IMG/VR virus record: IMGVR_UViG_3300043313_001352
Span: 50,035-114,034 of that record
DNA from: a virus
Strand: one strand, 5' to 3'
Length of the DNA stretch: 64,000 nucleotides
Shown: piece by piece, positions 4,490-41,300 of the stretch
How the letters are laid out: the number at the start of each line of letters is the position of its first letter
Position numbering within the stretch: position 1 is the stretch's first letter
Program-made: the position numbers and the translations under genes
The notes under the pieces: model-generated
The model's database searches: none
The model's input: the letters and a program-made list of their open reading frames with translations, nothing else
What the model was told of the DNA's origin: nothing

Positions 4490-4873
4490 ACCAGATTCAT
4501 ACCAGTAGATCAAGCAGGAGACGGCCCAGGAGACGGCCCAGCCTGCGCCCAGCCTGAACCATTCACGCAACTCATAGAACGGAATGCTTTTTGGGGGTGC
4601 CGCGTGACGAGCTGAGGCGACAAGGATCCGCGCCGACACCCTTTTTGGCTGGGCCACCACTGGGCCGTCCACTGCTTCATCACTGCTTTGATGTCCGTTT
4701 CCTCCCTAGTCACCTGTGCCTCCCGACCCCGTCCTCCCCCACCGTCGCTGACCCCTTAGAACCCGCACTCCAGATTGCTCGTCTGAACCCTTAGTCCCCA
4801 CACTTCCAAGTGGTTGTCCCCGTCCACCATCTCTAGGGATTCACCTGTCGGACGATGTGCTACTCAGATCCCC

Positions 4874-5401
4874 TCAGACCAGCCGCACCCCGACGAACAC
4901 CCTCGCCTTCCCGTCCCACGTCGCACCCGCCGCCAGCAGGTGCTCGCGCAGCACCTCGCGCTTCATCCGCAGACTTCCCGGCAGCTCCCGGAACCTCTCG
5001 CGCTCCGTGAACGCCAGCCAGGTCGCGAACGACACCTCCACGTCCCTCGGCGCCACGGTGTCCCCCTCCGGCCCCGTCCTCCCGGTCACCTCCACGCACG
5101 CCTCCCCCCACGCGCGCACCACCGGCTCCACCTCGGCCCGCCACTTCTCCTCGCGCGTCACCGCGCCGGGCACCGGCACCGTGTCGACGTGCACGTGCGT
5201 GATCCGCCACGCCCCCGGTCGCCCCAGCCAGGACTCGCGCTGGGTCTGGCTCATCAGCAGGAACCGCCCGAGTGCGGCCTGCCACTCCGCCCCGTACCGG
5301 GGCTCGGCCTTCCCCTCCGCGACCGCTGCGTCCCAGCACAGCCCCCAGCCCGCCAGCGCCTTGCTCAACCTCGCCGTCCCCACCATCTCAGCCGTCTCCA
5401 T
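4874..5401 (-). CDS. hypothetical protein (possible C-terminal winged-helix like primase-associated domains)
   Basis: RBS GGAGGAG before ATG 5401. The C-terminus resembles the tail of the 12314..14701 helicase (compare ACVEVTG...FVGVRLV with ACLEVTG...MVGGRLV). Confidence 0.6.
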   Translation of the reverse strand: METAEMVGTARLSKALAGWGLCWDAAVAEGKAEPRYGAEWQAALGRFLLMSQTQRESWLGRPGAWRITHVHVDTVPVPGAVTREEKWRAEVEPVVRAWGEACVEVTGRTGPEGDTVAPRDVEVSFATWLAFTERERFRELPGSLRMKREVLREHLLAAGATWDGKARVFVGVRLV

Positions 5402-5486
5402 CGTCGCTCTCCTCCACGTTGATTGGTGATTCACCTGTTGCCAACCTACCGAGCCCGCCCCGCTGGGCTAGGCTCTCCCCGCCCTC

Positions 5487-5838
5487 GGCAAGTCGGGGCA
5501 AGGCTTGGCTTGGCATGGCAGGGCAGGGCTCCCCCTAGGCCAGGCGCGGTCAGGCAGGGTTCGGCTCGGTCAGGCAGGGCAGGTTCGGCAGGGCGCGGTG
5601 TGCTGAGGTCCGGCGTGGCGAGGTGGGGCAAGGCACGGCAGGCTCGGAGCGGCTCGGCACGGCTAGGCATGGTGAGGCAGGCACACCCAGGCGGGGTCCG
5701 GCAGGGCACGTCAGCATTTGGCAGGGCATGGCAGGTGGGGCAAGGCTCGGTGTGGCCTGGCGGCGTACGGCATGGTTGGGTTCGGTTCGGCGTGGCAGGC
5801 ACGGTTAGGCATGGCAAGGTGAGGCGTGGCGAGGCGCG
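5487..5838 (+). ncRNA. orphan GGY-NN pentamer mini-array (putative guide RNA precursor, ~6 units)
   Basis: Reads ggcaa ggctt ggctt ggcat ggcag ggcag ggctc... with GGCA-GGY punctuation, the same grammar as the 21.6-25.6 kb array but on the opposite strand. Confidence 0.75.
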
Positions 5839-5885
5839 AGGGAACCCGCTCGCTCGTCGTCAGGGTGGTGTGTACTCTTCTCCCC

Positions 5886-6290
5886 ATGGGAGGGAACAAG
5901 CGCGGGTCGGTATTACGGTCACTGACCTGCCACTACTGCGGTGAGCGGGCCGAGGGCGAAGACCACATCGTGCCGCGAGCCGACCTGCCCAAGCCGCTCT
6001 CGAAGCTGCCCTACTGGTTCCGCGCCAACGACGTCGTTCCGGCCTGCCAGCCCTGCAACGGCGACAAGGCGTGGTTCAGGTCCGACTGCGTCTGCTCGCA
6101 CTGCACATGGGCTTGGTCCACCGCTCACGCGCTGTTCCTGCCCGAGGGCTACACCGAGCGCGGTTGGGTCGCCATCCAGCAGAACCCGACCATCGCGATG
6201 CCGCTCGCGGTCCCGCGCCCCGACCGGTCCGCCTACCCAGGCACCCGCGAAGGCCGGTCCGACCGCGAGTCCCAGGCCCTGTCGAACTAG
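5886..6290 (+). CDS. HNH endonuclease
   Basis: CHYCG...EDHIVP...NDVVPACQPCNGDK; leaderless start (TACTCT, 7 nt, ATG 5886). Confidence 0.85.
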   Translation: MGGNKRGSVLRSLTCHYCGERAEGEDHIVPRADLPKPLSKLPYWFRANDVVPACQPCNGDKAWFRSDCVCSHCTWAWSTAHALFLPEGYTERGWVAIQQNPTIAMPLAVPRPDRSAYPGTREGRSDRESQALSN

Positions 6291-6428
6291 TCTCCGCCCG
6301 CCGCTCCGACTAGCTCGGCAGGGCCGCTCGCGCTCTACCTAGACCACCCCGTCCCCCTGGCGCGAGCGTTGGTCAAATGAGAGAGTGCCAACTCATTCAC
6401 CTGTCACTCACCTCCTGGGAGTTCCTCC

Positions 6429-6908
6429 ATGCGCCGTCGACTCGCGCTCCTGCCCACCGTCCTCGCTGTCGCCTTCACCGGGCTGTTTGCCGCCGCACCA
6501 GCTCAAGCCGCACCACCGGTCGACTACACGCACCAGGGACTCAACGACGCGACGGCTCACATCGAGCTGAAGGGTCCGATCAAGGTCACCGGCAAGACTG
6601 CCACCGTCAAGCTCCAGGTCGACTGCACCAAGGGTCGTCAGGCCAGCGTGGGTGGTGGCGTGTACCTGGACCCAGACAACTCCTGGCCCCCGGTCTACTA
6701 CTACTACTCGCCCTTGACCAGTGCGTTCACCTGCACGGGTCATCCTCAGAACGTCAGCTTCACCGCGGTGGCGGGAGCAGGCCCCGCCGAGGGCAATCAG
6801 ACGCTGGCGCCGACCAAGGGCATCACGCAGTTCTACGCCTATGTCGTCTACGCCAACGAGGACGACGTGACCGATGACTTCATCGGAGGCACCGCTCGCC
6901 TGGGCTGA
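6429..6908 (+). CDS. secreted protein (signal peptide)
   Basis: MRRRLALLPTVLAVAFTGLFAAAPAQA signal peptide with an AxA cleavage site. Confidence 0.75.
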   Translation: MRRRLALLPTVLAVAFTGLFAAAPAQAAPPVDYTHQGLNDATAHIELKGPIKVTGKTATVKLQVDCTKGRQASVGGGVYLDPDNSWPPVYYYYSPLTSAFTCTGHPQNVSFTAVAGAGPAEGNQTLAPTKGITQFYAYVVYANEDDVTDDFIGGTARLG

Positions 6909-7373
6909 CTACCGCCCACCCCAGGCCCGGTTCACCTCGTCGAGCACCGTCCACGGCGCCCGCCCGGCCTCGTTCGAGGTGAACCGGACGATCCGCCAGC
7001 CCAGCGCCTCGATCTCGCGCTGCCGCTTGTGGTGCTTGGCCCAGGCTTCCTGCGGCCCGTGGAAGGCCAGCCCGTCGATCTCGATCCCGAGCTTGCGCCC
7101 GGCCAGCCCGAAGTCCAGGTAGTAGCGCCCCACGCGCACCTGACGACGCAGCCCGGCCAGTGCAGGCCACCGGTCCGGCGATGCCGTGTACGCCGCCCAC
7201 AGCACGTCCTCGGACGGCCCCACCCACGGTCCGCCGACCTTCTTCTCCCCCGCCCCGCCAGCCGTCCCAGCCACAGTGAACCGGCCGTCCTTGCCCCGCG
7301 CCCGCCCCCGCACCGGGGTCCCCCGGACCAGGATCATCCGGGGAGTCCGCACCACCCTGCGCCGCCGCGCCAT
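6909..7373 (-). CDS. DUF559 / Vsr-like endonuclease
   Basis: RRQVRVGRYYLDF...LGIEIDGLAFH...RQREIEALGWRIVRF. Confidence 0.85.
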   Translation of the reverse strand: MARRRRVVRTPRMILVRGTPVRGRARGKDGRFTVAGTAGGAGEKKVGGPWVGPSEDVLWAAYTASPDRWPALAGLRRQVRVGRYYLDFGLAGRKLGIEIDGLAFHGPQEAWAKHHKRQREIEALGWRIVRFTSNEAGRAPWTVLDEVNRAWGGR

Positions 7374-12317: not shown

Positions 12318-14701
12318 ACCAGCCTCCCGCCAACCATCAGCTTCCTCTTCTTGTCGTAGGTCATCCGCAGTGTTCGGCAGGTGTTCTCCAGCTCGTCGCG
12401 GGTCGCTGCCTTGCTGAGCTTGGGTGCATCCTCACCGGCGAACATCACCCAGGTGTTGAACGAGACCACCATGTCGGCGTGGGTGAAGGTGTCCAGCGCA
12501 CTGCCGGTGACCTCCAGGCAGGCGCCGGACCACTTCGCGAAGATGTTGTGCTTGGCCCGCTCGTCGGTGGCGGTCTCGGCCCACGCCGAGGTGTCGCCCC
12601 AGCCGTGCTCGGCCCACGCCTTGGCACCCTCCAGCATCCAGGCCAGCGCCAGTCGTAGCTCGGCCGGTTGCCGGGTGATCTGTGACCTCAGGTCGGGGAT
12701 CACCTCGCGCTCGCTCATCGAGTACTCGAAGGGGAAGAACTTCAGCCGCCGCCAGACCGCCTCGTCGGGGATCTCCAGCGCGTGGTTGGTGGAGAGCCAC
12801 AGCGAGCACTCCGGCACGAAGGAGATCTCCTCCTTGCCGTAGGGCAGCCGCCCGGACAGCGAGTCGCCCCCGGACAGGCTCTTCAGCATCGGCAGGTTGA
12901 CCTCGGCCTTCATCGGCGGCTCGGAGAAGGTCAGCACCCGCTGGCCCACGATCGCGGCCACCGAGAAGTCCGGGTTGCCCTTGTCCCCGAACAGCAGGTT
13001 GTGGCTCATCGCCTTGCCGTAGGAGCCGACCACCTTGAGCAGGATCTCGCTGAACGTCGACTTGCCCGAGCGGGTCGGGCCTTTCAGCACGAAGACCGCG
13101 TCCACGTCGCCGTCCACACCGCGGCGTCCGTACAGCGAGGCTCCGGCCGCGCGTTGCAGCAGCCGGAGGTTGTCGGGTCCCATCTGGTGTTCCAGGTCGG
13201 TGACGAACTTGTGGAACCAGCGTCCTTGCCCACCCTCGGAGGCCACGTCCCACAGGTGCTTGAACTCCCCACCTGGCCCGTCGTCGTACGGCGCCCCCAA
13301 CGCCTTCGAGACCCGCCTGGTCCGGGCGTCCAGCTCGCATTCACCTGTCCGCAGATTCACCAGCCGCCCGATCCCGGCCGTCACCGGCAGCCCGGCGATC
13401 CAGCCCTCGGCGTCCCAGTTCAAGGCCGAGGGCACCAGCACCCGCTCGTCGGACTGCAGGTCGCCCAGGATCGAGGCGGTGGGTCGCTGCTGGGCCTTGC
13501 CCGCCCACTTGAACGCGTCCTTGCTCAGAGTGTCCTTGCCGTCCAGCTTGGACTGCCTGCCCTCGGCCAGGTGGATGTCGGGCATGTCCATGCAGTAGGA
13601 CTTCAGCATCGTCTCGCTGCGCTCCGGCCCACCCCAGCCGGACTCGGTCCAGACCCGCCAGGACAACCCTGGTGTGTAGAGCATCTTGTCGCCGTGGGTG
13701 TCGATCAGCCGCCGTACATCGCCGCGTCGGGTGTAGGTCCGCGGATCCCCGCCCACCAGCGGAGTCCCAGGACGTGTCCGCCACGGGTCGTCCCGGTCGA
13801 TCCGGGCGACGTCGTCGACCAGCCCGGCCGCGGTCAGACGCATCATCAGCGCCGAGGTGGCATTGGTCAGTCCGGCGATCGGGTCGACCAGCACCTTCGA
13901 GCCGCCGGACCACTCATAGCCTGCCCTGGGCGCCAGTACCGCGAACGCGCCGTCACCGAGCACCCAGACCCCGGTGACCAGCTCGATCTGGGTGCGGCCA
14001 CCCATCACCGCCTCGGACTCCCCGATCCGGAAGAACCAGTGCTGGCCCCCCGACGGAGTGGTCTGGGTGAGCACGTGCCCGGTCATCTTGAACCGCGCCC
14101 TGGTCATCTCGGCGTGCTCGCCGACGTCGAGGACCACGATCTTGGACTCCGAGCCGGTCAGCACCGCCAGCCCGATCCACCCGGCCTTGACCCTCAAGTC
14201 CGAGGCGGGGAAGACCCGCTCGACGTCTTCTTCGACGCGGGCCACGCCCAGTCCGGAGACCAGGTGCTTGCCCCAGGTGGTGCAGGCTTCGCCGTCCTTG
14301 CAGCAGCAGCCGACCAGCCCGGAGGCTGCGGCGCCCGGCACCGCGTCCACCGGCATCCAGACCGGCGCGATCGCCCAGCCGAACTGGGTGATGTAGCCGC
14401 GTGCCCAGCGCCACAGGTTCTTGACCGCGTCCGGGATCGGTGGCTCGGCGCCCGCCGGTGGCACCCCCGGAGGAGTCGGCGGACGTGGCGGGGTCGGCGG
14501 GCCACCCACCACACCACTCTCACCAGGCGCCGGTGGCGGTCCTGGTGTTGAGGGCATCCCCACGCCGGGCGGGGGCGGTGCGGCGCTGTCCACGCTCACG
14601 GGTCCGGGGTCCCGTGCATCGTCGTGGTGAACGGGCTCTCCAGGGCCTCCAGCTCCCGCTCCCGGCCCCACTGCTCCATCCAGCTTGTCTCGTCCCGCCA
14701 T
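12314..14701 (-). CDS. bifunctional Prim-Pol primase / D5-like SF3 helicase (start uncertain)
   Basis: Prim-Pol motifs GLAVLTG..IVVLDVG and TPSGGQHWFF; Walker A GPTRSGKST; LKSLSGGDSLSGR...LWLSTNH...AVWRRLKFFPF. Confidence 0.9.
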   Translation of the reverse strand: MAGRDKLDGAVGPGAGAGGPGEPVHHDDARDPGPVSVDSAAPPPPGVGMPSTPGPPPAPGESGVVGGPPTPPRPPTPPGVPPAGAEPPIPDAVKNLWRWARGYITQFGWAIAPVWMPVDAVPGAAASGLVGCCCKDGEACTTWGKHLVSGLGVARVEEDVERVFPASDLRVKAGWIGLAVLTGSESKIVVLDVGEHAEMTRARFKMTGHVLTQTTPSGGQHWFFRIGESEAVMGGRTQIELVTGVWVLGDGAFAVLAPRAGYEWSGGSKVLVDPIAGLTNATSALMMRLTAAGLVDDVARIDRDDPWRTRPGTPLVGGDPRTYTRRGDVRRLIDTHGDKMLYTPGLSWRVWTESGWGGPERSETMLKSYCMDMPDIHLAEGRQSKLDGKDTLSKDAFKWAGKAQQRPTASILGDLQSDERVLVPSALNWDAEGWIAGLPVTAGIGRLVNLRTGECELDARTRRVSKALGAPYDDGPGGEFKHLWDVASEGGQGRWFHKFVTDLEHQMGPDNLRLLQRAAGASLYGRRGVDGDVDAVFVLKGPTRSGKSTFSEILLKVVGSYGKAMSHNLLFGDKGNPDFSVAAIVGQRVLTFSEPPMKAEVNLPMLKSLSGGDSLSGRLPYGKEEISFVPECSLWLSTNHALEIPDEAVWRRLKFFPFEYSMSEREVIPDLRSQITRQPAELRLALAWMLEGAKAWAEHGWGDTSAWAETATDERAKHNIFAKWSGACLEVTGSALDTFTHADMVVSFNTWVMFAGEDAPKLSKAATRDELENTCRTLRMTYDKKRKLMVGGRLV

Positions 14702-21083: not shown

Positions 21084-21554
21084 TCAGCTGGCTTCACCCG
21101 CGCTGGCACTGAGGTCGGTGAGCACCTCGTTGGCGAACTCCGCCATGTGCTCGTAGCGCTTCTTGAAGGATCGCCAGTCACGGCGCATCTGGCGCAGCAT
21201 CAGCTCGCGCTGGATCGGGTCCGTGATGACCTCCTCGATCGGCTCGTACGCCGAGGTCGGGCTGCCGTCTTCTCCACGGGTGACCCAGAACGCCCGGAGG
21301 TCGGCGCGCTTGTTGCCGACGTCGGCCTTGTACTTCACGCGCAGCAGGTTCCCGGCCTGGTGCAGCCGCCACTTGTGCGCGGCCACGTCGTCACGCCAGT
21401 CGAACCGGTGGTGCAGTGGGTGGTCAGGATTCGAGGCTTCCTCGACCACGACCTCTGGGGTCAGCAGCCCGCGCTTGTCTCGGATCGCCAGCAGCACGTC
21501 ACGCAGGTTCTCACCAGCGCTGGGCACTGGGGTCTCGTCGGTTCCGTTCGTCAT
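21084..21554 (-). CDS. conserved phage protein, putative accessory factor of the RAMP/GGY-NN array system
   Basis: LTPEVVVEEASNPDHPLHHRFDWRDDVAAHKWRLHQAGNLLR; directly follows the array on the same strand; RBS GGGAGG and possible -10 TACGAT (~21588-21583). Confidence 0.75.
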   Translation of the reverse strand: MTNGTDETPVPSAGENLRDVLLAIRDKRGLLTPEVVVEEASNPDHPLHHRFDWRDDVAAHKWRLHQAGNLLRVKYKADVGNKRADLRAFWVTRGEDGSPTSAYEPIEEVITDPIQRELMLRQMRRDWRSFKKRYEHMAEFANEVLTDLSASAGEAS

Positions 21555-21610: not shown

Positions 21611-24600
21611 TAGCCGCGCCGGGCCACGCCGAGCCGTGCCCAACCATGCCTTGCCAATCCGCGCCTGCCGCACCTTGCCGCACCCACCTATCCATGCCGG
21701 TCCCAGCCTCACCACGCCTGCCTGGCCGCGCCACGGCGCGCCTTGCCCGGCCATGCCTTGCCAACCCCGCCTGCCTTGCCCGGCCGCGCCTAGCCTTTCC
21801 ACACCGCGCCTGCCCCGCCATGCCGAACCTGGTCACGCCTCGCCCAGACGGGCCTGCCAAGCCCAGCCCAGCCAAACCTTGCCTTGCCGCACCTGGCTGT
21901 GCCACGCCTGCCTGGCCGCGCCACACCCAGTCGTGCCAGGTCCCGCCTAGCCATTCCCTGCCTGCCTCGCCGTGCCTGACCGCACCCCACCATGCCTAGC
22001 CCCACCGCGCCTGCCATGCCGTACCAGACCTTGCCGAGCCAACCGGGGCTGCCTTGCCAAGCCCACCGCACCTAGCCCTCCGCGCTGCGCCTGTCCATGC
22101 CTAGCCCTGCCTGCCTCGCCATGCCGTACCGGACCCTGCCGGACCGGACCACTTCGGAACACACCTAGCCATGCCCTGCCGAGCCTGCCAAGCCACGCCC
22201 CACCGGACCCGACCACGCCTAACGCCACCTGGCCCCGTCAGTCCGTACCTAGCCACGCCTGCCTTGCCGTGCCGTGCCGGGCCTAACCCCACCCGACCAT
22301 GCCTTGCCTGCCGCGCCGCGCCCACCCGGCCATGCCTAGCCCCAGGTCACCTCGCCCAGCCTGCCTCGCCCAACCCGGCCATGCCTAGCCCTGTACGCCG
22401 CGCCACGCCTGCCGGACCAAGCCGCGCCTGACCGAACCAAGCCCCGCCGAGCCCACCTCGCCTGCCGGACCTGGCCGTGCCTGGCCTAGCCGCGCCCATC
22501 CATGCCCCGCCTGCCAAGACCCGCCGTGCCGTGCCATCGGTACCGAGCCCTACCAAACCACGCCTGCCGCGCCGTGCCAGACCGCTGCCGTGCCGACCAC
22601 GCCTAACCTTGCCCCGCCTGCCGTGCCATGCCCAGTCGCACCCTGCCGCGATCGCCATGCCCAGCCGTGCCGTTCCTGCCATGCCGGACCTCGCCCTCCC
22701 GGCCATGTCGTGCCCTGCCCCGCCTGCCCTGCCGAGACTGGCCGAGCCGTGCCATGCCTTGCTCACCTGGCCGTGCCGAGCCCGGACCCGCCTGCCTTGC
22801 CATGCCGGGCCGAGCCGTGCCTACCTGACCTAGCCCTGCCTGCCCAGCCACAGCTTGCCGTGCCTTGCCATCCGCGCCTCGCCTGCCGCACCCCACCTAG
22901 CCTGACCGAGTCATGCCCCGCCTGCCTCGCCTTGCCAGGACATGCCTTGCCACACCGCGGTGCACCAACGCCTCGCCTGCCAAGCCTTGCCTTGCCGTGT
23001 GCTGCCAAGCCGGGCCTGGACATGCCCACACGTGCCCTGCCGACCCGAACCACACCGAGCCATGCCTGCCGCGCCACGCCTTGCCTTGCCATGTCAACCG
23101 GGCCTGGCCCTGCCGCCCGCGCCTTGCCACGCCTGCCCGACCACACCACGCCTTGACCTACCCACGATGCCCCGCCTGCCGGGCCTAGCCCTGCCTTGCC
23201 AGACGATCCTGGCCGCGCCTGCCCTGCCTTGAGCGCCTTGCCTCGACCCGCCGTGCCAGGACTGCCGGACCGTACCGTGCCCAGCCTCGCCACGCCGTAC
23301 CTAGCCGCACCTGCCGGACCGTGCCTTGCCCAGCCACTCCATCCGTACCTAGCCTGCCGAGCCGTGCCTTGTCACGCCACGTCCCGCCCGGACTCGCCCC
23401 ACCGAGCCATGCCTGCCCAGCCGAACCACTCCTAGCCTGGCCATACCCTGCGCTGCCTGCCGTACCGAGCCACGCCGTACCGCGGAAGCCACGCCGATGC
23501 CTTGCCCCGCCTGCCGAGCCGTTCCTGGCCATGTCCCGCCGCGCCGTGTGCTGCCCCGCCTAGCCCCGCCTGCCGCGCCATGCCTTGCCGACCTTGCCTC
23601 GCCCAACCGTGCCAGACCTGCCCCGCCGCACCTAGCTGCACCGCACCAAGACCCGCCTGCCGCGCCTGGCCGAACCTTGCCATCCTTGCCCTCCGCGCCG
23701 CACCGAGACACGCCTGCCCAGCCCCGTCGTGCCATGCCTGGCCGCGCCCCACCTGACCAAGCCTGCCGAGCCGGGCCGCACCATCCTCGCCATCCGGTGC
23801 CGTGCCCCGCCTTGCCTGCCGCGCCGCGCCCTGCCAAACCTAGCCAAGTCGTGCCCTGCCATGACGAGCCGTGCCGGACCTGCCGTACCTCGCCACGCCC
23901 AGCTCCGCCGAACCTCCCGAGCCCAGCCATGCCTGCCGAGCCGAGCCGCGCCCCGCTTCGCCCTGCCAGGCCCGACCTTGCCATGCCTGCCACACCCGGC
24001 CTTGCCACATACTGCCGCGCCCACCGATCCTGGCCGCGCCCAGCCATGCCTGCCCGGCCCCGCCGCACCTCGCCATGCGCTGCGATACCACGCCACGCCC
24101 TCCGCGCCTGCCTGGCTCAGCCACACCGTCCCGTGCCACGTATCCCAGACCACGCCATGCCTGCCTCACCTAGCCCTGCCAAGCCCGGCCAATCCTGGAC
24201 GTGCCGGACCGAGCCAAGCCTGCCGGACCACGACGTCCATGCCCTGCCGCTGCCATGTGATGCCCTCCGCACCGAGCCACGCCTGCCTGACCGCACCAGA
24301 CCCGGCCGCACCCTGCCTAGACCACCGCGCCATGCCTGCCGTGCCGAGCCAGCCCTTGCCTCGTGAAGCCCAGCCCCGCCTCGCCGTGCCCAGCCAATCC
24401 GCGCCTGCCCCACCGATCCAAGCCCTGCCTTGCCTAGGCAAACCACGCCTGCCTGGCCTAGCCGGACCAAGCCGAACCCCGCCTATCCCCGACCCGCCTG
24501 CCGGACCGCACCTTGCCGTCCGCGCCGCGCCCAACGATGCCCAGCCACGCCTGCCGAACCGTGCCACGCCGTACGCCCCAAGCCGGACCCAACCTGCCCC

Positions 24601-25590
24601 GCCTCGCCTAGCCCAGTCTCGCCATGCCCAGCCTGGCCGTGCCCCGTTCACCGCGCCTGCCGAGCCTCGCCCCACCGACCTAGCCAACCCAGACCTAGCC
24701 TGCCGCGCCTCGCCCAGACAAACCATCCTCGCCGGACCGCCCGCACCTCGCTGCGCCAAGCCTGCCGCGCCACGTCATGCCACAGCTCGCCGCCCGTACC
24801 AAGCCTCGCCTGCCCCACCTCACCTAGCCAGGACGCGCCGGACAGCACCACGCCTCGCCACACCTTGCCTGCCGGGCCGCACCGAACGATGCCGAAAGCC
24901 ACCAAGCCCAATCATCCGAGCCGCACCACGCCTGCCTTGCCCGGCCGGACCGGACCGCGCCGTACCCGCCCCTGACAAACCCTGCCTAGCCCTGCCAGCT
25001 CCCTGCCATGCCTGGCCTGCCAGACCACGCCCCTCCGAACCTGGCCACACCATGCCCTGCCTCGCCTGCCGTGCCCGACCCTGCCAACGACGCCTAGCCC
25101 TGACACACCATGCCCTGCCTGCCACGCCGTGCCCAACCAAGCCCGGCCGGTCCCTGCGATGCCTTGCCATGCCAAGCCTGCCGTGACCCGCCTTGCCACG
25201 CCCCGCTTGCCCCGACGCACCTGGCCTTGCCTAGCCTGCCGAACCTAGCCGAGCCACACCATGCGTAGCCCCGCCGGACCAACCCGAGCCCCGCCCTGCC
25301 TGCCGCGCCTGGCCGTTCCCAGCCCACCAAGCCACACCGTCCCGGCCAAGCCTGGCCGTGCCAAGCCTGCCCAACCGCGCCTGGCCAGACCAAGCCAAGC
25401 CGTGCCATCCGCGCCTTGCCGACCACTCCGTGCCGCGCCCCGCCTGCCGGGCCTGGACTCGCCGTGCCATGCCTAGACCTGCCTGCCATGCCGCGACGAC
25501 CGGGCCAAGAATCCCATGCCCCGCCCCGCCTAGCCTGCCCCGCCGAGCGATGCCCTGCCGCGCCTAGCGTTGCCATCCCGTGCCTGCCGT
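21611..25590 (-). ncRNA. ~4-kb GGY-NN pentamer guide array (about 75-85 units of ~7-15 pentamers separated by GGCA-GGC); VIPR-like RNA array
   Basis: The + strand parses as NN-RCC pentamers (tagcc gcgcc gggcc acgcc gagcc gtgcc caacc atgcc ttgcc...) with a recurrent gcc-tgcc punctuation. The NN content is unique per unit, and the ORFs here are low-complexity artefacts. Confidence 0.85.
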
Positions 25591-25601
25591 GTCCGGACGT
25601 G

Positions 25602-25659: not shown

Positions 25660-26343
25660 TTACTTGACCTCGACCGAGCGCGTCGGGTCGATCATGAAGG
25701 TGCCCATGTCGCCCTTCTTCTCCGGGCGCCACTCACCGACGCCGACACCCAGGCCACCGGCCTCGATCAGCGAGAGCACGCTCTCGCGGGTCAGCATCGA
25801 CTTCACGTACGTCACCTCCAGCACCGTCGACCACTCGGTGAACTGCGGCCGGTAGCGCAGGTCGGTGCCGCCGTTGCCGACGCGCACGACGTCCTCGCGC
25901 ATGATCGGCTCGCCCTCGATCCGGACCATCATCTGGCCCTCGGTCTTGGACATCTCGCCGGAGAAGAACAACGTCTGCCGGAGGCTGACCATGGTCACGC
26001 TCTTGTCGAAGAACCTCGCAGCGCTGACGGTCGCGGCCTTGAACGCGATCGAGGGGAACCCGTAGCCGCCGTCGTCCATCTTGTAGGCCGCGGCCTCGTA
26101 GTCGCCCTCGGGGTCCTTGGGCGCCTTCGGGCTCTTGCGGCCCTGCATCGCATCCAACATCTGCCTCTTCGCCTTCTCGCTGAACTTGTGCATGATCAAC
26201 GGCGCGGAGCCGACGATCGGGATCAGCAGCGTCTCGGTGCCGATCCGGGAGATCTCGATCGCCGGTGCGCTCTCGTCCTCGGCGGGAGGAGGAGTCGCTG
26301 CGGTCTTCTTGGCTGCGGTCTTCTTGGCAGGCTTCGTGGCCAT
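25660..26343 (-). CDS. RAMP/Cas7-like RNA-binding protein (Vipr-like effector)
   Basis: GSAPLIMH (beta1), GFPSIAFKAATVSAA (cf. RAMP IPGSSLKGxxR) and a C-terminal Gly-rich loop GGLGVGVGEWRPEKKGDMGTF. RBS AAGGA before ATG 26343; lies immediately upstream of the array. Confidence 0.75.
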   Translation of the reverse strand: MATKPAKKTAAKKTAATPPPAEDESAPAIEISRIGTETLLIPIVGSAPLIMHKFSEKAKRQMLDAMQGRKSPKAPKDPEGDYEAAAYKMDDGGYGFPSIAFKAATVSAARFFDKSVTMVSLRQTLFFSGEMSKTEGQMMVRIEGEPIMREDVVRVGNGGTDLRYRPQFTEWSTVLEVTYVKSMLTRESVLSLIEAGGLGVGVGEWRPEKKGDMGTFMIDPTRSVEVK

Positions 26344-32349: not shown

Positions 32350-35300
32350 CTAGGTGTTGAGGAAGGAGGTCGTCAGGTAGATGACGTCACCGTTGGCCAC
32401 GGTGCCGATCGTGACTCCACCGCCAGAAGAGATCTGACAGTTGACTACCGTGTTGGTGCCGTTGCGGGCGAGGAGGTTGACGGAGATTACTGGGCGTCCA
32501 GCAGTCAGCGGGATCGTCGCCATGGTCGTACCCGAGCCTGAGGCGCGCGAGAAGGTTCCTCGGAAGTAGACCTGCTCTCCGATGATCTTGTACGCAGGCA
32601 CGATGTTTCCAGCACCCCACCCCGCTCCGTACGCGAAGGAGTTCCAGCCACCACCTTGCGCGGAGTCGGCAGGCATGGACTCATCAGTGGCCCACTCGAT
32701 CCTTCCGGCGTCGATGTTGAAGTACGCGACCAGCACCCAGTTGTTCGGCACCGTGAAGTCGCTGAGGTAGTTCGTGTACCGGAAGTTTGCGGCCAGTGAG
32801 GTCGCAGCAGACCCGAAGGGGATCTCGTACCAGAGAACGTCCCATGAACTCATAGGGACGCCTGCCGAGGTGACCGTCTTTTGAGTGGCCCCGCCGAAGT
32901 TCGGGATCACCGTGCCAACAGGCGGCATGGTGATCTCGAAGTAGCCAGAAGGGGCAAGGTTGACGCTTCTACCGATACTCATCGGCATGAACCGCGCAGA
33001 CCACGAGATGTTGTAGTTGATGTCAACGACCTTGACACCGCCACCAGAGAGTTGTGACTGGGCACGGATGGAGTAGTACAGCTGCTCAAACGCCTTGCCA
33101 GTGAAGGAAGTCGCGCCAGCGCCTCCGACGTCCAGGGTCTCGAAGTGAGCGACACCGTCACCAGTGAGCTTGATCTTGGGGAACCCGCCAGTGCCTGGTG
33201 CGTTGGACTCCCATGAGGCTGGAGACGCAGCGATGAAGCTGGTGAGCAGCGGCGGCGCATCGGTGTCACCTACGGCACCGACGAAGTTCGGGGTGCTGAC
33301 GGTCGAGTACGTCGCTCCGACTCCAGACGGCAGGAACGCAGGCTGCTCAGGCTGCAGGATGAAGTCAGTCCGGATCGGCGTGATGTTGAGCGCCGCCCGA
33401 GTCAGGTAGAACCGGAACGAGTTCACATCGTTGACAGTCCGTGCCGTGCCCTTACCTGCAGCCGGGTCTGGCAGGTCCGGCACCGTGACGGTCAGCCGAG
33501 CCCGCTTCTTCATCGTGATCGAGGCGTACGCCGAGGCGTTCGACTCCTGGATGGCCCCTTGGGAGTCGTACCAGGTGAACGCTCCCCACCAGATCGAGGG
33601 ATCCGTGGCTGCCCAGGTGATCCCGGTGTAGTTGTAGAACTGCGGGCCGTCAGTGGCCGGAGCGGCCGTGAACCTCGTGAACGCACCAGTCAGCACATCT
33701 CCACACGCGCTGACACTCCGGGTCGCTGGGACCGCTGGGAACTCCAGGTCGACCAGACGCGCGGGCGAGGCAGCGTCAGTGAAGACGTAGTTGTTCACCG
33801 TCCCGTGGATCACCCAGATGTCCCGGTCGGTCGTCTCGAAGCCCATCCGCTGCGAGGAGCCGTAGGTGACACCGCACAGATCCTCGTCCTGGGCGAAGAA
33901 GGATGAGTTGATGGTCTTCGTGGCGCTCGGGGTGATCGTGGTGTCGGTGAAGGCCAAGGTGGCGAGTTCAATGGTGCCACCGGGCCATGGTGCGAACATG
34001 TTCCGCTTGGCTTGCGCGACCATGTGTGCGCGGGTAGCACCGGTCGCTGAGAAGCACCGTCCCAGCCGCCATTGCCAGAACCAGGAGAAGGTACCGTCCT
34101 GACGCTCGGCCTTCTTGATCGGGGCGAGAGTGCCCGAGGTGTTCATCGCTGAGTCGTCCCAGCTGGTGATCATGTACTTCTCGTCGCGGGCTCCAACGTA
34201 CCCAGCGGTGCGGAAAAATCCGTTGGTGACCTGTCGCTCAAGCCCACCAACAGCGATGACTGAGTTGCCATGGAAGGTGTAGTACGCAGCTGTCTCCCCG
34301 TTGCTGTTCGCGACGCGGGGGACCTGCCACCAGGTGGTCCCCTTCTTCATCGTCGCGTCGTCGAAGAATGTGTTCGCACAACGGAACGAGCCAGTGGACT
34401 CAGCACTGTCCAGGTGGAAGCCCCAGAACGGGTCACACCACTGTCCCCGTGCGAACGCGGACTGGGGGTAGTCCGTGCCCAGCGAGGGACCTGAGGTGGC
34501 ACCCACGGTCTGGGTCTGCAGGATGGTCTTGGAGCCCATCGCGAAGGTCGACTGGCCGCGGACATCCATCCCCTGGCCGACCGTGAGCCCGCGTGCCATG
34601 ATCTGCGCGTCGATCACCGAAGGCTTCTGTGGATCGTTGGGCAGGTCGACCCGGATCGAGACACCATCGGAGCCGTACTGCCTCAAACCCTCGCTGGACA
34701 GCTCCATCCGCTGCCCGGACTCAGCCGTCTTGATCTTCCCGATGATGGCGAGGTCAGCGTCCAGCTTCGCGCCCTTGATCTGAATCGCGTCCACCAGGTT
34801 GGTGTAGATGTAGCCGTCGGAGATGTCGGCCTCGGTGATCTGACGCAGGGTGGCCGAGCCAGCAGTACCGGGAGCAGCGGAGTTGAACCCGCCACCGATC
34901 TTGGCGTCCTTGGCGACGATCCGCACGTAGTAGGTGACCGAGCCGTCCTTGACCAGGAAGGTGCCGTCCGCCAGCTGCTCACGGATCGTGTAGGAGGTCG
35001 CCGTGGTCTCGATCTGCAACGTCGCTGCCGATGGCGTGAACGTGGCACCGGTGGTAGCGCAGTGCACCTCGTAGGTCACCGTGTCGTGGTTGAGGATCGC
35101 AGGCCACTTGATCCCCAGCGAGGAGACCGAGCCCGTCACCGTAGCTGCGGGTGAGGACGCAGGCGCAAGAGCATCGGGCGTGGCGGCGTTGTACGCCGAG
35201 TCAGCCGTGGCCGGGACGTTCGAGCTGGCCACAGTGAGCAACAGGTCGAAGATGCCAGAAGCAGCCGGGATGTCTGTCTCAGGCACCAGCGTGGTGTTCC

Positions 35301-38300: not shown

Positions 38301-41300
38301 CGAGAGCACCTTCGGTTGCATCCCACGCGACCGTGTGAGCAGCGTTGTACCACTGCATCCCGTTAACGCTGCGCTGCCAGTCAGCGGGCAGCGTCGGGTC
38401 AACCGTGTCCAGCTTGGCGAAGTCACCGTTACGGATGATGTCGTTGCCGTACTTGATCCAGGTGTAGGTGGGCTGTCCGTTAGGACCAATGGGACCTTGC
38501 ACGCCCTGGTTTCCCTGGGGACCTTGGATCAGTGACCAGTCATAGTCGGTGTAGATGGACGACTCAGTGGCAGAGGACTTGTTGTAGGCCAAGCCCATGT
38601 AGATCTTGCCTGCAGGTAGGTCACTCATCCCCGTCGAAGGCGTGTCCGCGTACTTCAGCCACGTGTAGGTGGGCAGACCGTTCGCGCCGGTCGGACCTTG
38701 GATCCCTTGAGACCCGGTGGCACCGGTGAAGGCCAGCGACCAAGAGAAGATCTGGTTGAAGGTCAGCCCGCCTACGGTCACCGGGATGGTAAAGGTCCCC
38801 GTGGCCGTGCTCAGTGCTGTCGTCACGGTGAAGGTGATCAGTGGCGCGGTGGTGCCGTTGTTGGTCACCGCTGCGGTGATGCCGGTAGCGCCACCGGTGA
38901 TCGTCCCGACCGTAGCGGTTTGTGCCACCGTGCCCTTGTAGGCGATGACGGTGGAAGTGGCAGACCCCGCTAGAGCGTTGGTGAGCCCAGCAGCAAAGCC
39001 CTGAGACTCGTTGCTGAGGAGGACCGTGTAGGCGTCAGCACCTGCAGGTCCAGTGCTGCCAGTAGAGCCGGTAGCACCGTCGGAGACCTTCGCTACGGTC
39101 AGCGTGTCACTGTTGCCGGAAGCCCCGATCGCCTTCACCGCGATGGTCTTGGCCGTCATGGTCGAGCCAGTGATCGTGACCACGTTCGATGCAGCGGGCC
39201 TGGAGACACCAGGTGGAACGGTCCCGGAGAAGGCAGCTCCGTCCACGCTGTACTGCCAGCCTGCCGTGGAGTCCGGGATCGTGGTGTTCGTCGCTACAGC
39301 CGTCACTGTCGCAGTCGCGGGTGTGATCGTTCCGCCTACACCAACTGCCAGCACCTGCGTGCTCGCTGTCAGGTCGACAGTCGAGGCAGGAGCACCAGCC
39401 ACACCCTGGGAGCCTTGTGGACCCTGAGGGCCTTGGATGAGCGACCACTCATAGTCGGTAGGAACGGTCGTCTCGGTAGCAGTGGTCTTGTTGTAGGCAA
39501 TACCGATGTAGGTCTTGCCTGCGGGCAGGTCGGAGATGTCAGCGACGATCGGGGTAGCGCTGGTGGCGTACTTGATCCAGGTGTAGGTGGGCTGTCCGTT
39601 CGGACCAGTCGGACCTTGCAGACCGGTGTTGCCCTGTGGGCCAGTAGTCAGGTTCCACTCATAGTCGGTGTAGATGCTGGACTCGGTAGCAGTGGTCTTG
39701 TTGTAGGCGATACCCAGGTACGGCTTGCCAGCAGGCAGGTCGCTCATCCCGGTGGTAGGCGTGTCGGCGTACTTGACCCAGGTGTAGAGCTGCTGCCCGT
39801 TCGGCCCGATCGGACCTTGCACACCTTGAGACCCGGTCAGACCCAGCGACCAGGAGAAGGTCTTGGTGAAGGTGATCCCACCGACGGTGATCGGCACCGT
39901 CAACGAACCTGAGGTGGTCACCAGCGCGGTGGTCACCGTGACGGTGAAGCCAGCCGCCGTCGTGCCGTTGTTGGTCAGTGCCGTAGTCAGACCAGTGACC
40001 TGCCCGGTGATCGTGCCGATCGTGGCCGTCTGCTGAACAGTCCCCTTGTACGCCAGCACCTGGCTGGTGGTTGATCCAGCGACAGCTGCGGTGGTGGAGC
40101 CAGGGAACACCTGGGCTTCGTTGGTCAGCTGCACGGTGTAGGCATCAGCGCCCGCACTGCCGTCCATGGACTTGGCCACGGTCAAGGTGTCAGCGACCCC
40201 GTTGGCGTCGGACATGCGCACCGCGATCGTGCGCGCGGTCACGGTGCCGCCGGTGACGGTGACCACGTTGCCGCTGCGCGAGACGCCCGTGGGGACCGAG
40301 GTCGAGAACACCCCACCGTCGACGCTGTAGTCCCACACCGTGATCGTGGTGTTGATCGGGGTGCCGGTCACCACGGCCGTCGTGGGCGTGGTGGCCCCTC
40401 CGGTCGCCGGGGAGGTCAGAACCTGGCTGGTCGAGGTCAGGCTGATGGTCGCAGCGGGAGTGCCAGGCACGCCGTTGGCACCGATCGGCCCGGCGAACGA
40501 CAACGACCAGCTGAACACCTGGTTGAACGTGATGCCGCCTACCGTGACCGGGACGGTGAAGGTCCCGTTGGCAGTGACCAGCGCGGTAGTGACCGTGAAC
40601 GTGATCAGGGGTGCCACAGTGCCGTTGCTGGTCACCGCGGCGGTGATGCCCGTGGCTCCGCCGGTGATCGTCCCGACGGTCGCGGTCTGCTGCACCGTCC
40701 CCTTGTAGGCGATCACCGTCGTCGTCGCCGTTGCGGCCTGAGCGTTCGTGGTACCAGCGGTGAAGGTCTGCGACTCGTTCGAGAGCACGACGGTGTACGC
40801 GTCGGCTCCTGCCGCACCGGTCGCACCGGTCGAGCCGTGCGCGGAGACCGAGTAGGCAGTCGACGTCGTGGTGTCGGAGTAGGTGGTGATCGTGCGCGTC
40901 CACAGGAACTGTCCAGGGATGGTCGCCTGCGGCGTCGATTGCCACGTCCCGACTGGTGCCGTCGTGCCGGTCGAGCCGACCTGGTAGGTGACCGCAGTGC
41001 CGGTGACACCGACACCTGGTGCCCCGGTGGAGCCCGAGGTGCCGTGTGCGGAGACTGAGTACGCCGTCGAGCTGGTGGTGTCGGAGAAGGTCGTGACCGT
41101 CCTGGTCCACAGGAACTGCCCAGGGGAGGTGGCCTGCGGACTGGACACCCAGGTGCCTGTCGGCGCAGTGGTGCCGGTTGAACCCACCTGGTAGGTGACG
41201 GTGGTGCCGGTGACGCCAACGCCCGGCGCTCCGGTACCGCCAGTGCTGCCGGTGGCGCCGTCGGAGACCTTGACCACGGTGAACGTGTCGGCCAGCCCAG

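Follow-up and report, generated by a model that had tools for sequence, protein, structure and literature searches.

An array of GGY-NN repeats lies upstream of an HNH endonuclease gene

The stretch of DNA analysed here (the window, 64,000 nt) makes up the final 64 kb of an IMG/VR virus record of 114,034 bp (IMGVR_UViG_3300043313_001352), a phage genome with a GC content of 67%, referred to below as G000. Coordinates are those of the window unless another sequence is named. On the forward strand, positions 5466-5835 hold an orphan array of about six to seven units built from pentamers of the form GGY-NN, in which the pentamer run is interrupted every 35-65 nt by a GGCA tetramer between units. 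The array is of the staggered type, lies upstream of a gene encoding an HNH endonuclease and in the same orientation, and is conserved in L134 and in G001/L151. The latter belongs to a complete 176,996-bp relative which has about 86% nucleotide identity to G000 over about 88 kb.

One unit of the array, at 5734-5797 on the forward strand, is the guide with which the following sections deal. It is 64 nt long and consists of 12 pentamers (5734-5793), 11 of them GGY-NN and one a degenerate CGT-AC, and a closing GGCA. Since GGCA is found on both sides of 5734-5793, the unit as it was delimited in a preliminary description of this DNA is a natural one. It is present in G000 and absent from G001 and L134, and no paralogue of it was found in any other array.

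About 30 nt 5' of the array lies the motif GATTCACCTGT (5428-5438, forward strand). With zero to one mismatch allowed, four copies were observed (4838-4848, 5428-5438, 6394-6404 and 13338-13348), all on the forward strand, where 0.74 would be expected. The gene at 6429, like the orphan array, has a copy about 30 nt upstream, and the motif is also kept 5' of the array in G001. A role as phage promoter or regulatory box is possible. A scan of positions 5300-6400 for sigma-70 consensus promoters and terminators found none, and a scan of window positions 4500-27000 against Rfam returned no family matching the arrays and no CRISPR family.

The HNH gene (5886-6290, forward strand) encodes a protein of 134 amino acids with a CxxC...DH...CxxCN signature and a further cysteine cluster. 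Its start at ATG 5886 is backed by 26 homologues, which begin with MGG or MG, and residues C15, C18, D26, H27, C54, C57 and N58 are invariant in the protein and all of these homologues. PHROG HNH families match it weakly (E 1e-3), and a Pfam search with the protein itself stayed below threshold; one of the 26 homologues (P0026) carries PF01844, and the metal-finger and catalytic histidine motifs of a PF01844-type beta-beta-alpha-Me HNH nuclease are present. A search of viral contigs with the HNH protein for related loci gave just two weak hits.

Directly 5' of the HNH start codon there is a GTGTGTACTCTTCTCCCC stretch (5858-5885). It is kept in G001, L133, L134 and L135, whether or not an array precedes the gene, and this conservation suggests that the HNH gene has an expression signal of its own, separate from the array. 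Two genes from the HNH gene, at 6909-7373 on the reverse strand, we observed a gene for a protein of 154 amino acids, whose DUF559 / REase_MTES_1575 domain is restriction-endonuclease-like.

A Cas7-like protein and a large second array place the system among the VIPR systems

In the published VIPR systems, a Vipr RAMP protein polymerises on vrRNAs of 9-16 GGY/NN repeats (bioRxiv 10.64898/2026.04.26.720920; 10.64898/2026.04.26.720927). The NN pairs of these RNAs read double-stranded DNA and pass over one base for each pair, usually the one at the codon wobble position (bioRxiv 10.64898/2026.04.26.720920), and binding silences transcription, with repression from either strand inside genes (10.64898/2026.04.26.720920; 10.64898/2026.04.26.720927). 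According to the same VIPR preprints, the natural targets are competing phages and satellites, the working threshold is an NN identity of 0.8, no self-targets at or above 0.8 occur in the surveys, and in staggered arrays the end of each vrRNA coincides with the start of the following one. Solo vrRNAs located away from vipr are aimed at relatives and at catalytic cores, and self-match scores of published vrRNAs are lower than non-self scores (bioRxiv 10.64898/2026.10.15.759431).

A gene on the reverse strand of the window (25660-26343; phrog_4652) encodes a Cas7-like RAMP protein of 227 amino acids. In a Foldseek search of solved structures with its AF2 model (pLDDT 93.7, pTM 0.85), the top 30 or more matches were all to Csm3, Cmr4-6 or type VII Cas7 proteins, with E-values from 2e-6 to 2e-4. 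BLASTP relates it to HY02_089 of a Felixounavirus (5e-11), with which it has a GVG-(E/D)-WRP motif in common, and this vipr homologue of HY02 is itself flanked by GGTNN arrays. The family comprises about 3,600 clusters at 50% identity and is found in 81 records of cultured Gordonia and Mycobacterium phages. The preliminary description had proposed a RAMP protein encoded 20 kb away as the partner of the guides, a proposal upheld by the Cas7 fold and by the homology to Felixounavirus vipr. We therefore refer to the gene as vipr, and its product is the presumed partner of all vrRNAs in G000.

The main staggered vrRNA array (21611-25595, reverse strand) is about 4 kb long and holds about 75-95 units, the lengths of which are mostly 5n+4 (43-64 nt). 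Its 5-nt GGY tokens comprise 355 GGC and 106 GGT, and all 16 NN dinucleotides are present; the orphan array is built in the same way. The main array of G001 (68057-71501) is 3.4 kb long, as against about 4.0 kb in G000. None of the parsed main-array guides of G000 and G001 gave a significant match when compared with both genomes. Downstream of the main array, a conserved 156-aa gene (21084-21554, reverse strand; phrog_15946) is a candidate vap (accessory) gene, with no Pfam hit and no similarity to the gene at the vap1 position in HY02. That the HNH gene might serve the orphan array as a vap-like effector was considered and left as unsupported, as the order of array and then HNH gene is found in G000, G001 and L134 and not in L133 or L135.

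This phage has a stand-alone Cas7-like RAMP protein and arrays of GGY/NN pentamers, and its guides match NN-x sites in wobble register. We therefore assign the array at 5466-5835 to a VIPR system, as an orphan array of vrRNAs; this kind of system is already published and not new. The GGY-NN units had earlier been read as guides that pair in an NN-x pattern with codon positions 1-2, which is the published mechanism; a gapped, codon-phased guide code read from the raw sequence turned out to be that of the VIPR systems published in 2026. Other candidate explanations of the 5-nt periodicity were dropped because the Cas7 fold and the VIPR literature account for the arrays. They were TRAP-like RNA-binding sites, DNA forming R-loops or two-quartet G-quadruplexes, sites for partition or iterons, rut sites, and pentapeptide coding.

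Arrays of similar appearance were observed elsewhere. Gene 40 of the Gordonia phage UmaThurman (NC_031249.1; L001:5323-5654), annotated as a CDS for a hypothetical protein, is a staggered GGY-NN array with GGCA punctuation and lies directly downstream of gp39, a Vipr homologue with 60% identity. At least one 'hypothetical protein' CDS of a cultured Gordonia phage is therefore really a vrRNA array. A pattern of nine consecutive GGYNN units was found in at least 120 viral contigs (L010-L129) with GC contents from 0.30 to 0.70; among the contigs listed, most arrays have high NN entropy and GGCAGGC staggered punctuation is seen in some only. A further repeat in the window, reported by Tandem Repeats Finder at 40834-41235, has a period of 207 bp, 1.9 copies and a 78% match.

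The guide matches catalytic-motif codons of the adjacent gene

It had been noted earlier that the NN string of 5734-5793, when reverse-complemented, resembles codons 5955-5990 of the HNH gene, and our scoring confirms this. Under the NN-x rule (1-nt skip) the site at 5955-5989 (forward strand), with codons for G-E-D-H-I-V-P-R-A-D-L-P including the catalytic DH motif, matches the guide at 19 of 24 bases. Eight dinucleotides match in full, six of them consecutively over E-D-H-I-V-P, three match by half and one does not match at all. The match is in codon register, position 5955 being in frame with ATG 5886 and the skipped base being the wobble position. The gap between guide and site, given before as about 160 nt, measures 162 nt.

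We scored every position of the 114,034-bp genome on both strands, and this site was the only one to reach 17 or more, followed by four sites with a score of 16. Guides shuffled in order and guides drawn from the NN pool of the arrays reached 19 anywhere in the genome in 0.47% and 0.8% of 1500 cases each. The unit is also the most extreme of 32 cleanly parsed units, the others looking uniform and null-like. Match quality alone would fail correction, because there are about 85 guides. The match is remarkable because it falls in the adjacent gene, is in codon register and has amino-acid-preserving half-matches, since among the three half-matching dinucleotides are the only two differences by which the residue stays the same (AG/CG for Arg, TT/CT for Leu). 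For a local search with a hit in the adjacent gene we estimate p at about 0.001-0.005. When Arg codons AGR and CGN are counted as the same residue, and likewise Leu codons TTR and CTN, the guide is compatible with 10 of the 12 residues of its own site, and none of 3000 shuffled guides reached 10 anywhere in the genome. Adjacency and this amino-acid comparison put the match between the guide and the HNH family beyond chance.

Close relatives carry the HNH gene without the guide and match it at least as well

The guide decodes to T-[DE]-[DE]-[HQ]-[IM]-V-P-[RS]-T-[DE]-[FL]-P. The consensus of the HNH family at the site, TEDHIVPRADLP, is compatible with the guide at 11 of 12 positions, and the protein of G000 at 10 of 12; at the first position the glycine of G000 is unique among the 26 homologues, 22 of which have threonine and three serine. 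The guide therefore fits the family better than it fits the gene beside it, which is the opposite of what would be expected of a chance match found in the phage's own gene.

The same trend is seen at the nucleotide level. The own allele, which mismatches the guide at the lineage-specific Thr-to-Gly codon and at Arg, Ala/Thr and Leu codons differing at position 1, scores 19 of 24, while the alleles of G001/L151, L134 and L133 score 20 and that of L135 scores 21. More distant members of the family for which DNA is available score 18-20, and a score of at least 21 is implied from the protein sequence of P0002 (TEDHVVPRTDLP). The own allele hence matches the guide no better than its close homologues do, and the published cut-off of 0.8 would admit the relatives' HNH alleles as targets and leave out the own allele. 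The difference depends on the 3'-terminal unit, without which the own allele scores 19/22 (0.86) against 18/22 for G001 and the gap between self and non-self vanishes.

The orphan array and HNH gene of G001 are syntenic with those of G000, and its Vipr protein is 98% identical. In the alignment of the two genomes the guide unit corresponds exactly to a clean indel of 64 nt, with near-identical units on either side. The HNH gene and the array occur without the unit in both G001 and L134, and the HNH gene occurs in L133 with no array upstream. No guide of G001 or L135 scores above 0.70 against the HNH gene of its own genome.

The preliminary description had offered two readings of the match, namely that the phage silences its own toxic HNH nuclease, perhaps as part of a toxin/RNA-antitoxin addiction module, or that it silences related HNH nucleases of competitors. 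Because the HNH gene is kept without the guide in relatives, it is independent of the guide, which argues against a role as antitoxin or in addiction. A toxin would never be found without its cognate RNA and the two would co-vary, and neither is the case here. G001 and L134 have the gene and the array without the unit, no compensating guide is found in them, and no compensatory covariation of guide and HNH gene is seen among relatives; the addiction module is thus unsupported, as is silencing of the own HNH, to which the guide is less well matched than to the alleles of relatives. The second of the two readings, with HNH genes of competitors as targets, fits best.

A less strict form of self-targeting deserves consideration, in which the guide would partly repress its own HNH gene through Vipr bound inside the coding region, for example to hold down levels of the potentially harmful nuclease until late infection. 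The own site is the unique best match in the genome and lies downstream on the same transcription axis, its score rises above 0.8 without the terminal unit, 21 of 24 guide positions could pair with it if rU-dG wobbles are included (by our count), and VIPR is able to repress from either strand within genes. We nevertheless consider such autoregulation unlikely, as G001 and L134 retain both the HNH gene and Vipr without the unit and without any other guide to their own HNH gene, the Thr-to-Gly change unique to G000 lowers complementarity, compensatory covariation is not seen, and self-targeting at 0.8 or above is absent from the published surveys.

Searches for a fully matching target

An exact NN-x match to a 10-unit core of the guide was not found in 2.9 million viral contigs. 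A degenerate 11-unit pattern, with two-fold choices at four positions, retrieved only G001 from the viral contigs and nothing from 185,579 prokaryote genomes. A looser 9-unit pattern retrieved one unrelated primase/helicase-like gene, which was taken as a chance match and rejected as a target. In a scan of metagenomes, evaluated among the matches listed, the peptide pattern had [AC] where the guide expects Thr, and therefore a Thr-bearing allele such as P0002 could be missed.

The guide expects an AGR codon for Arg and a TTR codon for Leu, and all sampled alleles have CGN and CTN at these positions; both families are rare in G000, where AGR accounts for 6.5% of Arg codons and TTR for 5.6% of Leu codons. 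Either the guide is a relic, or its true target could be an HNH allele outside those sampled, perhaps a recoded one. As a relic, the unit would once have matched a common HNH allele with CG, GC and CT codons and would since have drifted or been detuned, so that it is now functionless. Such decay would account for three guide positions that are mismatched in every sampled close HNH allele, and for the lack of a perfect target in any collection searched. It would have to account as well for two of these three shared mismatches being the sole dinucleotide differences without effect on the residue (CG/AG for Arg, CT/TT for Leu), an outcome rare under random drift. Moreover, the unit has intact boundaries and GGY in 11 of its 12 pentamers, and it is an addition relative to the arrays of relatives rather than a degraded copy of a shared unit. 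These points make decay an improbable origin of the mismatches.

A second solo guide shows the same layout

All guide windows of G000 and G001 were scanned against both genomes. A parallel case lies outside the window, where a solo vrRNA on the reverse strand (L132:2864-2923, genome positions 34363-34422) forms an array with a single guide. It ends in a stem-loop and then a short T-rich tail, and this 3' hairpin looks like an intrinsic terminator. Its target in G001 (L154:14532-14560, G001 positions 34532-34560) matches at 20 of 20 bases over ten units, in codon register, and is part of a gene orthologous to the 176-aa gene that adjoins the solo guide in G000. The own allele of this gene (L132:2643-2677), 187 nt from the guide, matches at 16 of 20 and is recoded: where G001 has CTC for Leu, TCG for Ser and a Phe codon, it has TTG, AGC and a Tyr codon. 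TTG belongs to the TTR family, which is rare among the Leu codons of this phage. In the alignment, seven changes fall within 15 nt and are bordered by about 30 identical bases on each side, and G001 is without a segment of roughly 87 nt which carries the solo guide. Judged from these alignments, the solo vrRNA clearly exemplifies a guide directed against a relative, the own allele being recoded and adjacent to it.

Pure coincidence between a string of 12 dinucleotides and a nearby gene, for which it may be said that about 85 guides and 228 kb of positions yield roughly 0.5 expected matches of such quality and that the HNH match was picked post hoc, is very improbable in view of the adjacency of the gene, the codon register, the amino-acid shuffles, the improvement rather than regression of the match in homologues, and the independent second guide of the same layout with its complete target.

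A probable guide against the HNH alleles of related phages

We propose that the unit at 5734-5797 is a guide against the HNH alleles of related phages, placed beside an own allele that is slightly mismatched and thereby immune; on the sequences compared here, this appears to be the probable function, by a modest measure. The units would be transcribed as GGY-NN RNA, as has been shown for other VIPR systems, and protomers of the Vipr protein (25660-26343) would coat each GGY. The NN pairs would then read double-stranded DNA, passing over one base for each pair, and binding would block transcription. The guide would aim at the catalytic-motif codons of the HNH family, whose local member lies just downstream, the intended targets would be the alleles of related, competing phages, and the own allele would be spared through its mismatches. 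This proposal draws on the allele data and on the analogy with the second solo guide, and it is weakened by the fact that no perfect or near-perfect target was found and that self and non-self differ by only one to two bases. With guide and immune allele side by side, recombination between co-infecting relatives would keep weapon and immunity together.

That a guide lies beside the own allele of the targeted gene has now been seen twice, an arrangement which suggests that selection keeps weapon and immunity linked. In the VIPR papers the code is argued to prevent escape by synonymous changes; recoding between codon families at the guide footprint (Leu CTN/TTR, Ser TCN/AGY) indicates that six-fold degenerate codons are an exception. 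As a tentative generalisation, which we regard as possible rather than probable, orphan VIPR guides could be linked cassettes of a weapon and an immune allele, with the guide within about 200 nt of the own copy, and immunity or escape could arise through switches between Leu, Ser and Arg codon families together with rare tolerated substitutions. The HNH guide, with its AGR and TTR expectations, could then be a counter-move against an allele that is already recoded, and so one round of an arms race. G000 and G001 are a natural close pair differing by single guide units and offer a test bed for the gain and loss of guides.

Comparison with known systems

The kind of system, and solo guides that spare self, are already known. 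What is new is the HNH target family, the polymorphism of individual guide units between two sequenced relatives, the position of a guide beside the own allele, and codon-family recoding as a route to immunity, of which a term search of the VIPR papers found no mention.

Mini-arrays of CRISPR carried by viruses target related viruses for superinfection exclusion. They resemble the present case in that a virus uses a few guides against close relatives that differ at the target site. The phage studied here differs in that neither CRISPR repeats and contiguous spacers nor the Cas machinery of a host take part; it brings a RAMP protein of its own and uses a gapped code. In type III toxin-antitoxin systems such as ToxIN, an antitoxin made of repeat RNA binds the toxin protein, and as here a nuclease gene directly follows the sequence for a tandem-repeat RNA. 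In contrast to ToxIN, the RNA repeats here are scaffolds for Vipr, and the HNH gene occurs without the guide in relatives, with no sign of addiction.

With the published VIPR systems (10.64898/2026.04.26.720920; 10.64898/2026.04.26.720927) the present one has in common the small Cas7-like protein, the GGY-NN pentamers with guide information in the NN pairs, the NN-x reading with wobble skip, and the encoding by a phage with aim at related mobile elements. The number of repeats per unit is mostly about 8-14 here and 9-16 in the published systems, and the shift of register at GGCA|GGC agrees with the 'staggered arrays with 1-nt overlap' described there (fig. S18 legend). The experiments in those preprints were done on E. 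coli and Pseudomonas systems, whereas the phage studied here is GC-rich and its Vipr has homologues in Gordonia and Mycobacterium phages. A main array of about 4 kb is very large by comparison with the published systems, the units lack a conserved pseudoknot tail, and the system is known from sequence and predicted structure.

The closest parallel to the orphan guides is provided by the solo vrRNAs of SUSP1-family phages and F5 satellites (10.64898/2026.10.15.759431), which are also located away from vipr, have their targets in relatives with self scores below non-self, and aim at catalytic-core codons in wobble register. A term search of the text of that paper (10.64898/2026.10.15.759431) found no mention of a Leu/Ser codon-family switch as self-immunity. 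The SUSP1/F5 targets are vipr genes, other vrRNAs, satellites and host repeats, and those described here are an HNH endonuclease family and the 176-aa gene. Unlike the SUSP1/F5 solo vrRNAs, these two guides lie less than 200 nt from the alleles that the phage itself carries.
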